From: Vibrio vulnificus CMCP6
GTDB lineage: Bacteria > Pseudomonadota > Gammaproteobacteria > Enterobacterales > Vibrionaceae
Reading direction: 5' to 3'
NCBI RefSeq assembly: GCF_000039765.1
Contig: NC_004459.3
Location: 810,001 to 842,000, forward strand
Length of the DNA stretch: 32,000 nucleotides
Under the pieces are notes generated by a model. That model saw only the letters and a program-made list of their open reading frames with translations. It was not told the origin of the DNA and did not search any database. Below, piece after piece: positions 13,650 to 29,574 of the stretch; the stretch's first letter is position 1, and every line of letters begins with the position of its first letter. A program made the translations under genes and the position numbers.

Positions 13650-14360
13650 TTATTGTTGACTTTCGTAGCCTGTCAGTAAGGCGTGAAAATCTTTGTCGTG
13701 CCAGTGAATACTTCGCTTCACTCGCTCTTTGTTAAATGAGCGTTTGAGTCGATCTAAGTTCTCTTGTTTCCAACCATCCCCAGCTTGCGGATAGCATTTA
13801 TCAAAATCGATAATCCAGATCGTTTCCTGCGCATCAATCAGAATGTTGTGAATATTAAGATCGGTATGATTGACGCCAACGCGATGCATTTTCGCAATTT
13901 CGACACCGATTTTTTGGTAAAGCTCCGCACTCAGTGAGTGTTTTTGCAGTATGGTCACTAAATCTTGCGCATTGGCAATGCGTTCACTCAGCAAGTCCGC
14001 TTGGTAAAAAAGCCCTTTTCTCATCGCATAGGCTGCGATCGGTCTCGGTACATTGACCCCGGCTTCGCGTAATTGTTTAAGCAGATGAAATTCTGCGAAA
14101 CTGCGTGTTGCAGACCAGCTTTGAAACCAATAGTGATCTTTCACCAACTTGCCGAATAGTCCACCGCGACGATAGTGACGCAGTGCTGCTGTGATCTTGG
14201 GCAGTTGCACAAACCACGTGGTGCCGCGCCCAGTGGCACTTCCCACCACTTTGTTTTGTGCTTGCCAATACTGCGGGTCAAATAAAGCCAGCTCTGGCGA
14301 ACTCACCCATTCGCTGTCGTAACAAATTCGACTTTGACCAAACTGCTGTTGTTCAATCAT
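13650..14360 (-). CDS. kdkA: 3-deoxy-D-manno-octulosonic acid (Kdo) kinase
   Basis: 236 aa. It has the kinase catalytic loop VNHTDLNIHNILID and a DFDK metal-binding motif. The size and the position inside the LPS core cluster match KdkA of Vibrio/Haemophilus. Confidence 0.8.
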   Translation of the reverse strand: MIEQQQFGQSRICYDSEWVSSPELALFDPQYWQAQNKVVGSATGRGTTWFVQLPKITAALRHYRRGGLFGKLVKDHYWFQSWSATRSFAEFHLLKQLREAGVNVPRPIAAYAMRKGLFYQADLLSERIANAQDLVTILQKHSLSAELYQKIGVEIAKMHRVGVNHTDLNIHNILIDAQETIWIIDFDKCYPQAGDGWKQENLDRLKRSFNKERVKRSIHWHDKDFHALLTGYESQQ

Positions 14361-14412
14361 GCTTTACCACCACCAATCATGCTTTACCACCACCAATCAT
14401 GCTTTACCACCA
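14354..14412. repeat. Three tandem copies (period 20 bp) of the 19-mer CAATCATGCTTTACCACCA spanning the dgkA stop and kdkA start
   Basis: Direct reading finds copies at 14354-14372, 14374-14392 and 14394-14412. On the minus strand each copy reads TGGTGGTAAAGCATGATTG, which is the end of dgkA (W W stop) plus AGC plus the ATGATTG start of kdkA. Confidence 0.95.
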
Positions 14413-14793
14413 ATAGTGACTACCAACGATATAAAGCCATGTAAAACCAGCGAAAATCAACGCCACCAGCACCGCCGCAGAACCAATGTCTTTAGCTCGG
14501 CCACTGAGTTCGTGATGCTCCACCCCGATGCGATCCACTACCGCTTCCACCGCTGAATTCATTAATTCAACAATCAGCACCAGCACAACCACCGCAAGCA
14601 ACGTGATACGTTCAAGCATCGATACATCAAACCAAGTCGCTAGCACTATTGCAACGACGAGCAAAGCAAACTCCTGACGAACCGCAGCCTCATGCTTAAA
14701 TGCCGCTTTCAAGCCCTGAATCGAGTAGCCTGTGGCTTTTATTATGCGCTTAATACCAGTATTGCCTGGCTTGCCTAAATTTGGCTGAGTCAT
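14404..14793 (-). CDS. dgkA: Diacylglycerol kinase
   Basis: GIKRIIKATGYSIQGLKAAFKHEAAVRQE...VELMNSAVEAVVDRIGVEHHELSGRAKDIGSAAV aligns closely to E. coli DgkA. The track ORF extends to 14862 (152 aa). The E. coli alignment and a divergent promoter inside the extension favour the ATG at 14793 (129 aa). Confidence 0.9.
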   Translation of the reverse strand: MTQPNLGKPGNTGIKRIIKATGYSIQGLKAAFKHEAAVRQEFALLVVAIVLATWFDVSMLERITLLAVVVLVLIVELMNSAVEAVVDRIGVEHHELSGRAKDIGSAAVLVALIFAGFTWLYIVGSHYWW

Positions 14794-14836
14794 AGAAGGG
14801 ATTGCCTTATCGTTGCCATCAATGAAAGAGGGGTAT

Positions 14837-14865
14837 TTTACATTTATCTTGGGTATCTGCATAAT
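14837..14865 (+). promoter_or_regulatory. Putative sigma70 promoter for the GT9-GT2 operon
   Basis: TTTACA (14837-14842), a 17-nt spacer, then CATAAT (14860-14865), about 30 nt upstream of the ATG at 14895. This is a sequence match only. Confidence 0.4.
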
Positions 14866-21916: not shown

Positions 21917-22056
21917 TTCTAGGTTCTAGGTTCTAGGTTCTAGGTTCTAGGTTCTAGGTTCTAGGTTCTAGGTTCTAGGTTCTAGGTTCTAGGTTCTAGG
22001 TTCTAGGTTCTAGGTTCTAGGTTCTAGGTTCTAGGTTCTAGGTTCTAGGTTCTAGG
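21917..22056. repeat. Perfect heptanucleotide tandem array (TTCTAGG)x20
   Basis: Direct reading finds 140 bp, 20 identical units and no interruptions. An extra out-of-phase CTAG (within ACTAGT) lies at 21910-21915. Confidence 0.98.
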
Positions 22057-22069
22057 AGGATCTTAAAAA

Positions 22070-22106
22070 ACAGCAAATAAAAAACCCAGCTCGAAAGCTG
22101 GGTTTT
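22070..22106 (-). terminator. Rho-independent terminator of rpmBG
   Basis: The minus strand reads AAAACCCAGCTTTCGAGCTGGGTTTTTTATTTGCTG. This is a 7-bp GC-rich core stem (CCCAGCT/AGCTGGG) extended by flanking A-T pairs, a 4-nt loop and a T-tract, 28 nt after the rpmG stop. Confidence 0.85.
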
Positions 22107-22133
22107 CTACAATCTTCAAAGAGACTCAATCAA

Positions 22134-27554: not shown

Positions 27555-28493
27555 ATGGCAACTGCAACAAAACCTGCGTTTTCAATTTCGCTGCTTCACC
27601 CTAAATACTGGCCTGTTTGGCTAGGCTTTGGCTTACTTGCCATCCTTGTCACCATCCTGCCGTACAAATTGCAACTTTGGCTAGGTCGCGGTCTTGGGCA
27701 ATTTTCCATGCGCTTCGCCAAAAGCCGTGTGCATGTCGCTCATCGTAACTTGGAGCTGGCCTTTCCAGAAATGGGCGAGCAAGAGCGCGAGGCCATTGTG
27801 GTTGAAAACTTCAAAAACACCGGCTTAGCATTGTTTGAAACGGGCATCGCCTGGTTTTGGCCAGATTGGCGCATCAAACGTCATGTTGTTTTTGGTGACA
27901 CCCGAGAACTGATGGAACTGGATGCCAATAAGAAAGGGGTGTTAGTGGTGTGTACGCACTCACTTAACCTTGAGATCACTGCACGTGCCTTTTCATTGTT
28001 TGCGCCCGGTTATGGCGTGTATCGCCCACATGACAACCCCGCTTACGACTTTATTCAAACTTGGGGTCGCACCCGTTGTGGCAACCAAATGGTGGATCGT
28101 AAAGATGTCAAAGGCATGTTGAAAATTCTACGCGGTGGTGGCCGCTTGTGGTACTTGCCTGACCATGACTATGGCAACAACCATGCGGTATTTGTCCCCT
28201 TCTTTGCAGTACCCGATGCGTGTACAACAGCAGGAACAGGCGTATTAGTGGATGCGAGTAAGTGTGCGGTGATCACCGCGTCTAGTTTCCGCAAAGGCGA
28301 AACGTATACGCTAGAAATCGACCCGGATATCAGCGACCAATTCCCACGTAAAGACGCGGTTGGTGCGGCAACGGTGATGAACCAAGCGATTGAGAAAGTG
28401 ATTTTGCGTGGATTAGATCAATGGATGTGGCTGCACAAACGCTTTAAGAGCATGGCTGACCCAAGCCAACCACGCGGCATTCGTTATAAATAG
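27555..28493 (+). CDS. lpxL: Lipid A secondary (Kdo-dependent) acyltransferase, LpxL/HtrB family
   Basis: 312 aa, collinear by eye with E. coli LpxL. Shared segments include LLHPKYWPVWLG, VAHRNLELAFPEM, the HS(x)4E active-site variant (THSLNLE), GVYRPHDNP, WYLPDHDYG and QWMWLHKRFK. It starts 3 nt after the slmA stop. Which acyl chain or position it serves cannot be told from the sequence. Confidence 0.85.
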   Translation: MATATKPAFSISLLHPKYWPVWLGFGLLAILVTILPYKLQLWLGRGLGQFSMRFAKSRVHVAHRNLELAFPEMGEQEREAIVVENFKNTGLALFETGIAWFWPDWRIKRHVVFGDTRELMELDANKKGVLVVCTHSLNLEITARAFSLFAPGYGVYRPHDNPAYDFIQTWGRTRCGNQMVDRKDVKGMLKILRGGGRLWYLPDHDYGNNHAVFVPFFAVPDACTTAGTGVLVDASKCAVITASSFRKGETYTLEIDPDISDQFPRKDAVGAATVMNQAIEKVILRGLDQWMWLHKRFKSMADPSQPRGIRYK

Positions 28494-28523
28494 TTAGGTT
28501 CTAGGTTGCTAGGGACTAGAAGC
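28494..28523. repeat. Degenerate CTAG heptamer-family tract (TTAGG TTCTAGG TTGCTAGG GACTAGAAGC) starting immediately after the lpxL stop codon
   Basis: Direct reading. It includes one exact TTCTAGG (28499-28505), identical to the unit of the 21917-22056 array. Confidence 0.85.
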
Positions 28524-28527
28524 CTAT

Positions 28528-28663
28528 ATAACTAGATAACTAGATAGCTAGATAACTAGATAACTAGATAACTAGATAACTAGATAACTAGATAACTAGA
28601 TAACTAGATAACTAGATAACTAGATAACTAGATAACTAGATAACTAGATAACTAGATAACTAG
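28528..28663. repeat. Octanucleotide tandem array (ATAACTAG)x17 with one variant unit
   Basis: Direct reading finds 136 bp and 17 units. Unit 3 (28544-28551) is ATAGCTAG and the others are identical. It is followed by ATTCTAGG, which contains an exact TTCTAGG at 28665-28671. Confidence 0.98.
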
Positions 28664-28689
28664 ATTCTAGGAGCTGCTTTTCCTAGAAT
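28664..28689 (-). terminator. CTAG-containing hairpin (9-bp stem) between the octamer array and the pyrE stop; possible pyrE terminator
   Basis: ATTCTAGGA (28664-28672) pairs with TCCTAGAAT (28681-28689) around an 8-nt loop, 17 nt downstream of the pyrE stop on the minus strand. No clean T-tract follows; the next sequence is CTAGTTATCTAGTTATC, from the array. Confidence 0.3.
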
Positions 28690-28706
28690 CTAGCCCCTGC
28701 CTTTAC

Positions 28707-29348
28707 TTAGATCCCGTATTGGGCGCGATACGCTTTCACCGCATCAAGATGCTCGGCTGCATCGCCTTTCTCTTCCAAGAAAGTGATCAAATCCGACAAG
28801 CTAACGATAGAAATCACTGCACAAGCGAAATCACGTTCAACTTCCTGAATCGCCGACAGCTCACCCTTACCTTTTTCTTGGCGGTCAATCGCCACCAATA
28901 CGCCAGCCAGATCGGCACCATTGGCTTGGATGATTTCCATAGATTCGCGAATCGCTGTGCCCGCAGTGATCACGTCGTCCACCAGCATAATGCGCCCTTC
29001 TAGCGCAGAGCCAACCAAGTTACCGCCTTCGCCGTGATCTTTGGCTTCTTTACGGTTGAAGCAGTAAGGCGTGTCGATATCGTGGTGATCGGCAAGTGCA
29101 ACCGCTGTCGTAGTCGCGATTGGGATACCTTTGTATGCAGGGCCAAAGAGTACGTCGAACTCAATGCCAGAATCCGCTAACGCCGCCGCATAAAAACGAC
29201 CTAGGCGTGCCAAGTCACGACCTGTATTGAAAAGACCAGCGTTAAAGAAATATGGGCTTTTACGGCCAGATTTCAACGTAAACTCGCCAAACTTAAGGAC
29301 TTGTTTCTCTAGTGCAAACTCAATAAATTCACGCTGGTATGCTTTCAT
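28707..29348 (-). CDS. pyrE: Orotate phosphoribosyltransferase
   Basis: 213 aa. It has [40 protein letters not shown] and the PRPP-binding motif [21 protein letters not shown] lies upstream. Confidence 0.95.
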
Positions 29349-29367
29349 TACTTTCTCCGTCTATAAG

Positions 29368-29407
29368 TTTCTAGTTCCTAGCTTCTAGTCCCTAGAAAGA
29401 TAACTAA
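29368..29407. repeat. Degenerate CTAG array in the pyrE 5' leader: four 7-bp units plus one octamer-like unit
   Basis: The units are TTTCTAG TTCCTAG CTTCTAG TCCCTAG (29368-29395), with CTAG at exactly 7-bp spacing: 29371, 29378, 29385, 29392. ATAACTAA (29400-29407) is one mismatch from ATAACTAG. The tract ends 20 nt upstream of the pyrE ATG. Confidence 0.85.
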
Positions 29408-29535
29408 AACTATAAAAGTGTTTTCAAAATAGATGTCTTTACGCGAGGCAGCGAGACTTTTCAGCGCCTGAGCAGAGTGCGCTATGTGATGGCGTGAAAA
29501 GTTAAAGCGAACAACGCGGCTCAGTTCTCTATACA

Positions 29536-29569
29536 GAAAACAAAAAAATAGCCCCCAAATGGGAGCTAT
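29536..29569 (-). terminator. rph-pyrE intercistronic intrinsic terminator (candidate pyrE attenuator)
   Basis: The minus strand reads ATAGCTCCC-ATTT-GGGGGCTAT, a 9-bp stem including one G-U pair, followed by TTTTTTGTTTTCTG. The hairpin begins 5 nt after the rph TGA stop codon. Confidence 0.8.
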
Positions 29570-29574
29570 CTAAA

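Follow-up and report, generated by a model that had tools for sequence, protein, structure and literature searches.

The spacer separating the 3′ ends of lpxL and pyrE in Vibrio vulnificus CMCP6 is best explained, with a probability that we put at about 0.8 on the strength of sequence comparisons, as a hypervariable compound VNTR/simple sequence repeat (SSR), built from a lineage-specific family of CTAG-ended units and lying next to a terminator-like hairpin. The repeat itself, its polymorphism, the invariance of the hairpin, the state of the junction in related vibrios and its derivation from a terminator-only spacer are direct results of the comparisons presented here. Given the fast copy-number change among strains (1–17 octamers), we regard the locus as an ordinary slippage-prone repeat and a strain marker, and not as a demonstrated protein-binding array. 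In what follows, the window denotes the whole 32,000-nucleotide stretch of DNA that was analysed.

A compound CTAG repeat between two convergent genes

The genes in this part of the window are arranged in the order slmA, lpxL, the array, pyrE (minus strand), rph (minus strand) and yicC, with a 213-bp spacer running from the end of the lpxL ORF at 28493 to the end of the pyrE ORF at 28707. The spacer and its flanking genes comprise the following features:

27555–28493, plus strand: lpxL, lipid A lauroyl acyltransferase (NCBIfam NF005340, E = 2.7e-142), with its TAG stop at 28491–28493; the flank upstream of the repeat
28494–28527, no strand: degenerate CTAG flank, ttaggttctag gttgctag GGACTAG aagcctat, delimited by sequence and allele decomposition
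28528–28663, no strand: octamer array (ATAACTAG)x17, from direct base reading and TRF, with unit 3 (28544–28551) being ATAGCTAG
28660–28693, no strand: hairpin with arms at 28660–28672 and 28681–28693 and the loop at 28673–28680, from folding and conservation
28694–28706, no strand: tail CCCCTGCCTTTAC, separating the hairpin from the stop of pyrE and akin to the V. navarrensis 16-nt unit sssCTGCTCTTCCTAG
28707–29348, minus strand: pyrE, orotate phosphoribosyltransferase (TIGR00336, E = 1.6e-69); the flank downstream of the repeat

The original prediction, made from the letters of the sequence, had described 17 octamers with a single variant in the 213-bp spacer, 23 CTAGs in about 200 bp, and stop codons in every frame of both strands, and all three descriptions were borne out. 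TRF recovers the array with a period of 8, 17.8 copies, 97% matches and a score of 270 at 28524–28665, in agreement with direct reading, and the dimer ATAACTAGATAACTAG (1 mismatch allowed) has 16 matches as against 0 in 100 dinucleotide-preserving shuffles; these are head-to-tail copies far beyond chance, as is characteristic of a VNTR or simple sequence repeat. The CTAG count over 28494–28700 is indeed 23, and the six-frame check of the spacer encounters stops in all frames, the longest open run being 3 codons on the plus strand and 7 on the minus strand. The lone GGACTAG at 28513–28519 in the degenerate flank is the single-copy form of another variable array, which holds 1–20 GGRCTAG copies in other strains.

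No genes were called in this spacer in any of the strains fetched, a scan of the lpxL-pyrE spacer revealed no promoter-like site, and an Rfam search of the window returned 0 matches at the gathering threshold, the sub-threshold miRNA matches on the repeat at E<=1 being spurious. Situated outside any ORF or promoter, between the stops of the convergent lpxL and pyrE, the array does not have the placement of a phase-variation (contingency) repeat.

Copy number varies in whole units among strains

Alleles of the spacer were collected from contigs that encode a PyrE or an LpxL identical to that of the window, or a close variant of this PyrE, and were cut at their CTAGs; one of the matching contigs, BA000037.2, we take to be chromosome I of strain YJ016. 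Among the 37 gap-free alleles thus compared 36 are distinct, with spacer lengths of 83–274 bp (median 146), 1–17 copies of the octamer ATAACTAG (median 6) and 1–20 copies of the GGRCTAG heptamer. The octamer and heptamer copy numbers are nearly independent of each other (r = 0.18). A single octamer is present in YJ016 and 17, the longest array found, in the window. All strains but one share a common architecture of the form ttagg(t/atagat)tctag gttgctag (GGRCTAG)n aagcctag (ATAACTAG)m, followed by the hairpin and cCyCTGCCTTTAC. Copy number hence varies across strains while the flanks and the hairpin are conserved, which is the hallmark of a VNTR; an array length that is invariant across strains was not found in the 37 alleles (1–17 copies).

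The window allele and two others (L008 and L201) have the internal marker units cctatATAACTAG and ATAGCTAG in common and differ solely in how many pure units they contain, a pattern indicative of recent gain or loss of whole units within one lineage. A further allele (L530) displays a block-duplication pattern. A replication-slippage hotspot had been listed among the alternatives in the original prediction, and the whole-unit copy differences among strains strongly support it. We accordingly propose that the adjacent arrays of GGRCTAG (7 nt) and ATAACTAG (8 nt) expand and contract by entire units, with slipped-strand mispairing in replication as the most likely cause, judging from the whole-unit differences within the marker-sharing lineage, and with occasional multi-unit block duplications of the kind suggested by L530. 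The length of the array would be neutral or nearly so, without a conserved function, and the window would merely hold the longest allele found.

The one strain departing from the common architecture (L003; GCA_021022985.1) has an unrelated 399-bp spacer (L003 3643–4041) composed of (GTCCTAG)n, a unique segment of ~130 bp and (GTAATCC)x26, with the CTAG-free (GTAATCC)x26 standing where the octamer array would be. Further, N gaps occur within the arrays in 4 draft assemblies and 3 short-read contigs end inside them; such breaks and gaps in short-read assemblies are explained by the presence of variable arrays at this locus.

An invariant hairpin adjoins the arrays

The only constrained, invariant element of the spacer is the hairpin with its 13-bp arms. 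These arms, CTAGATTCTAGGA (28660–28672) and TCCTAGAATCTAG (28681–28693), begin 13 nt past the pyrE stop, and the first CTAG of the hairpin is shared with the last octamer. They fold into 14–15 pairs, with a predicted energy of -22.1 kcal/mol on the plus strand (z -4.1) and -24.3 kcal/mol on the minus strand (z -3.3). A CTAG-built hairpin at the end of the array had been recognized in the original prediction and is present as described, with the correction that the 9-bp stem given there is too short, the arms being 13 nt long. In all 38 alleles that contain both arms these are identical; 0 of the 26 stem columns are variable as opposed to 9 of the 22 columns of the loop and tail (p = 3e-4, with alleles that are not phylogenetically independent), the variable ones amounting to 5 of 8 in the loop and 4 of 14 in the tail among the alleles containing the hairpin.

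A stable, GC-containing hairpin of -22 to -24 kcal/mol is what an intrinsic terminator would have. After the stem, the pyrE strand reads UUAUCUAGUUAU and the lpxL strand CCCCUGCCUUUAC, a proper T-run being absent, and a scan with a terminator consensus did not call the hairpin at 28660–28693. We consider this element to be probably a terminator or a 3′-end structure of the convergent lpxL and pyrE transcripts. It would most likely act by terminating, or by stabilising the ends of, both transcripts, and a weak U-rich tail would be furnished by the first octamers, which read UUAUCUAGUUAU on the pyrE strand. An invariant stem alone is no proof of structure, and a sequence-specific binding site could equally give rise to it.

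In the V. navarrensis counterpart TTCTAGG..CCTAGAA still pair as the core, and a G-C pair takes the place of the adjacent A-T pair of V. vulnificus; there the core is embedded in a longer imperfect palindrome of CTAG units. This core is kept in 3 of the 4 V. navarrensis strains; the fourth (L223) has lost one 16-nt unit and that hairpin is not predicted in it.

The CTAG spacer is a derived state of the Vulnificus lineage

The same junction in other vibrios is far shorter and plainer. The lpxL-pyrE spacer of V. parahaemolyticus is an invariant 60 bp, and that next to a PyrE variant annotated 'MULTISPECIES [Vibrio]', from Harveyi/Natriegens-type genomes, is 70–75 bp long; both the V. parahaemolyticus and the Harveyi-group spacers feature a canonical hairpin between runs of A and T, with no CTAG or, in one strain, a single one. 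The V. navarrensis spacer spans 116–177 bp with 7–13 CTAGs, and combines GTTCTAG/GTTCTGG heptamers, a single gttactag octamer and the 16-nt sssCTGCTCTTCCTAG, while V. floridensis displays the V. vulnificus architecture with 7 octamers. In light of the short terminator spacers of the relatives, the spacer made of CTAG units is a derived state of the Vulnificus lineage, in which it has replaced a plain bidirectional terminator.

The V. parahaemolyticus/Harveyi-group terminator and the V. vulnificus hairpin occupy the same place between the two stops and both are stable hairpins that can be read on either strand. Unlike the former, the V. vulnificus hairpin is built of CTAG sequence, has no runs of A and T at its sides and is set inside variable repeats. 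We envisage that the CTAG-unit family took the place of the short canonical bidirectional terminator seen at this junction in other vibrios. The proposal in the original prediction of an octamer expansion within a heptamer-type element finds partial support, in that single-copy alleles exist and V. navarrensis has its lone gttactag among heptamers.

Related CTAG-ended units at other loci

The density of CTAG in the 32-kb window is 1.25 per kb for coding sequence as against 15.4 per kb for noncoding sequence, and 48 of the 51 noncoding CTAGs are confined to three intergenic regions. That the units used all end in CTAG is not accounted for by slippage, the tetranucleotide being otherwise rare in the coding sequence. 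Two further loci in the window carry the same family of units:

21917–22056, no strand: (TTCTAGG)x20, which reads (AACCTAG)n on the other strand (TRF score 280), between the rpmG terminator (22077–22110) and the start of a 165-aa ORF
29366–29395, no strand: four degenerate CTAG heptamers shortly before the start of pyrE, with (ACCCTAG)1-10 in other strains

The first of these ranges from 7 to >45 copies in 11 V. vulnificus strains, with an N gap in one assembly, and the link that the original prediction drew between it and the octamer array is upheld, since both belong to the same unit family and are likewise variable in copy number. The adjacent 165-aa ORF has no family matches. The >45 AACCTAG units at the rpmG locus occur in the GCA_021022985.1 strain (L003, L212).

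At the second locus, the rph-pyrE spacer (window 29349–29574), V. vulnificus strains show two forms, as inspected in L004, L204, L205, L208 and L543: one, as in the window, of about 226–230 bp with 4–5 degenerate CTAG heptamers, and the other of 93–156 bp with (ACCCTAG)1-10. Both keep a hairpin-plus-T-run just after rph (29546–29571), which resembles the E. coli rph-pyrE attenuator. The V. navarrensis rph-pyrE spacer (L220–L223) is 205–424 bp long with up to 38 CTAGs and is different in each strain sampled, its units being AACCTAG, GACCTAG, TAACCTAG, AACCCTAG and the 16-mer GAAGAGCAGGGACTAG. A family of CTAG-ended units of 7, 8 and 16 nt occupies several intergenic regions in the lineage of V. 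vulnificus, V. floridensis and V. navarrensis.

For a wider survey, genomes (one per species) were scanned for the exact octamer trimer (CTAGTTAT)3, since generic period-7 and period-8 CTAG patterns proved too unspecific in viral contigs (98 and 45 stretches, respectively). Controls with other palindromes in those contigs give comparable counts of period-7 x5 patterns (CTAG 98, GATC 75, CATG 40, TGCA 70 and AGCT at least 120), and the notion of CTAG as a generally favoured heptamer anchor was rejected on this account. An origin of CTAGG through Dcm/Vsr deamination was also considered and set aside, as the V. navarrensis GTTCTGG/GTTCTAG units do not lie in CCWGG contexts.

The trimer scan yielded 38 loci, 11 of them in Vibrio, including V. 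maerlii (four), V. floridensis (two), V. europaeus, V. tapetis and V. tubiashii; the others come from Colwellia (4), Psychromonas, Kangiellaceae, Motiliproteus and scattered MAGs of distant phyla. The octamer arrays are often joined to other CTAG units (AAAACTAG, CTAGTTTT, AGAGCTAG and GGTCTAG) and often adjoin terminator-like hairpins. Identical octamer arrays of up to 12 copies recur in distant phyla, namely in a Bacteroidota MAG (L170 1088–1183), a Treponemataceae MAG (L183/L189) and Patescibacteria (L175), where they often precede a second array differing by one or two bases (CTAGTTGG, ATAACCGG). The flanks of the arrays at different loci share no common ends, and hence nothing suggests a mobile element.

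Considering the 19 gammaproteobacterial octamer loci, 5 are convergent, 1 divergent and 13 co-directional; 9 of the 13 co-directional arrays are closer to the 3′ end of the upstream gene, and 6 of the 19 arrays either overlap a stop codon or lie within 11 bp of one. The presence of related units at multiple intergenic loci, together with this preference for the upstream gene's 3′ end, is typical of lineage-specific intergenic SSR families of the heptamer class. It is plausible that duplications arising at a stop codon or immediately past it are tolerated because they leave the protein unchanged; the tolerance of stop-containing units would follow from this, and the arrays that abut stop codons are consistent with it.

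Alternative explanations

We next consider a selected spacer or insulator, in which repeats are kept for their six-frame stops and for the distance that they provide, thereby freeing read-through ribosomes and buffering transcription collision, so that some repeat would be favoured while its length drifts. This is compatible with the stops in all six frames, with unit lengths of 7, 8 and 16 that are all non-multiples of 3, and with the surveyed gammaproteobacterial loci, where convergent arrangements outnumber divergent ones (5 to 1), most co-directional arrays (9 of 13) are nearer the 3′ end, 6 of 19 arrays sit at a stop codon and terminator-like hairpins are often found alongside. However, 83-bp alleles with one copy of each unit exist, the relatives make do with 60–75 bp and a plain terminator, and the 3′-end bias is equally predicted by neutral tolerance, having been reported for other heptamer SSR families (PMC4692102). 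We therefore deem such selection unlikely.

A protein-binding array, as favoured in the original prediction, is more doubtful: TrpR, MetJ, a ribbon-helix-helix protein or another small repressor would bind the CTAG cores 8 bp apart cooperatively, with the array acting as a decoy or architectural site. Tandem short units can be true operators, as exemplified by the omega repressor of pSM19035, which binds arrays of 7-bp heptads. CTAG has been described as the core of both Trp and Met repressor sites (PMC1166578), and MetJ binds 2–5 tandem 8-bp met boxes of the form AGACGTCT, in Vibrio among others (PMC12925634). The statement in the original prediction that the E. coli trp operator has CTAG cores 8 bp apart is sound and was verified in sequence: the trp promoter carries ACTAGTTAACTAGT, with 100% identity upstream of trpL in 5,422 genomes, and the region upstream of aroH carries GTACTAGAGAACTAGTGC. 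Over CTAG-N4-CTAG, the CTAG-ATAA-CTAG of the array is identical at 11 of 12 positions to both the trp core CTAG-TTAA-CTAG and the aroH core CTAG-AGAA-CTAG, so that in the 8-bp spacing of its cores and in the bases between them it resembles a TrpR site.

However, the E. coli TrpR operators have 2–3 CTAG cores over a promoter with outer GTAC/GTRC flanks, whereas the array lacks the outer GTAC flanks and strings up to 17 cores, in unconstrained number, between two stop codons, overlapping no promoter and not conserved among strains. Likewise, the MetJ arrays, (AGACGTCT)2-5, resemble ours in their tandem 8-bp units with CTAG at the unit junctions, but the V. vulnificus unit matches the met box at only 5 of 8 positions in the register AGATAACT, has ATAA in place of the central ACGT, and lies away from a met promoter. 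Given the lack of promoter location and of conservation, we do not place the locus in the TrpR or MetJ operator families.

The comparison of alleles also runs counter to a long cooperative binding or titration array. Octamer copy number ranges over 1–17, with single-copy alleles in healthy lineages such as that of YJ016; the neighbouring 7-bp array varies independently (r = 0.18); periods of 7, 8 and 16 nt are mixed; and the deviant strain L003 replaces the whole spacer, with CTAG-free (GTAATCC)x26 in the octamer array's place. Furthermore, the identical octamer array is present in Bacteroidota, Treponemataceae and Patescibacteria, which to our knowledge have no TrpR. Incidental binding of TrpR to long alleles may nevertheless occur. 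A broader version, in which the CTAG-ended 7-, 8- and 16-nt units, far from being simple products of slippage, are read by TrpR itself or by some other protein, a ribbon-helix-helix or HTH factor, that coats gene-end spacers and functionally replaces intrinsic terminators, with the number of units tuning occupancy or titrating the regulator, strikes us as decidedly improbable.

A remnant of either a deleted gene or a mobile element (e.g., a MITE) bounded by TTCTAGG direct repeats is largely refuted. Exact copies of TTCTAGG do lie on both sides of the array (28499–28505 and 28665–28671), as the original prediction stated, and the 399-bp spacer of one strain is different altogether. However, one of the two copies is part of the flank and the other of a hairpin arm, and nothing points to their being target-site duplications. 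The flanking copy is largely conserved, a minority of alleles having ATTCTAGG and YJ016 lacking it. Moreover, the spacer has stops in all frames and no ORF, the octamer arrays elsewhere share no common ends in their flanks, and no gene is found at the junction in V. parahaemolyticus, the Harveyi-group vibrios or V. navarrensis, so that the suggested remnant of a deleted gene is at odds with the 60–75-bp terminator spacers of the relatives.

Finally, an assembly artefact, which the breaks and N gaps of short-read drafts within the arrays might bring to mind, is scarcely credible, for the 136-bp array is shorter than common read lengths and several multi-megabase single-record chromosome sequences have the same architecture with varying counts (CP035731, CP012881, CP118438, CP150831, CP014636, CP027030 and BA000037).

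Relationship to known repeats and significance

The slippage-prone compound repeat that we favour finds its closest parallels among bacterial VNTR/SSR typing loci, with which it shares short units in head-to-tail order, conserved flanks and a large number of alleles (36 of 37 being distinct here). Unlike these, the lpxL-pyrE locus is compound, with two arrays of different period beside a conserved hairpin. An SSR typing scheme for V. vulnificus was reportedly devised by Broza et al. in 2007. Typing of this species has made use of 12 SSR loci with 2–34 alleles (PMC2815951). With its 36 distinct alleles among 37, the present locus could aid outbreak typing of V. vulnificus as a strain marker beside the existing scheme.

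A second set of parallels is seen in heptamer repeats. Heptamer SSRs are reported to be over-represented in bacterial intergenic regions, with lineage-specific families such as GGGAATC in Xanthomonas and GGGGAYT in Nostoc (PMC4692102), and a TAACTGA family is known from Beggiatoaceae, cyanobacteria and Bacteroidetes (PMC4679880). Like the V. vulnificus units, these families (PMC4692102, PMC4679880) occupy many intergenic sites per lineage, tend to lie nearer the upstream 3′ end, vary between close relatives and are of unproven function. In contrast to them, the V. vulnificus units are CTAG-ended, come in lengths of 7, 8 and 16 nt and have no G-quadruplex potential; moreover, TAACTGA concentrates just upstream of start codons, which the CTAG units of V. 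vulnificus do not. Our literature searches for the exact CTAG units found no paper describing them.

The locus presents a case in which the canonical bidirectional terminator gave way, in one lineage, to a repeat-built hairpin flanked by expanding arrays. It offers a tractable system for studying the origin of lineage-specific repeat families and the use of a tetranucleotide that the genome otherwise avoids. It also sounds a note of caution, in that a tandem repeat can closely match the core of a TrpR operator without thereby being a regulatory site.

Other features of the window and its neighborhood

Elsewhere in the window, a perfect 20-bp x3 tandem repeat (CAATCATGCTTTACCACCAC) at 14354–14412 lies across the junction of the minus-strand ORFs 13650–14360 and 14404–14862; by straddling the junction of the two ORFs, it repeats a stop/start region. 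In CP014636.1 (L010 4721–5584) an extra glycosyltransferase gene (PF00535) is inserted between slmA and a 309-aa lpxL, and the 309-aa lpxL variant is also found in several other strains. Past yicC (window >31350; L001–L010) strains differ in gene content, variously encoding an EamA transporter, phage-type integrases, a MerR-methyltransferase fusion or a PLD/helicase DUF3427 protein, which suggests that this region is an integration hotspot.
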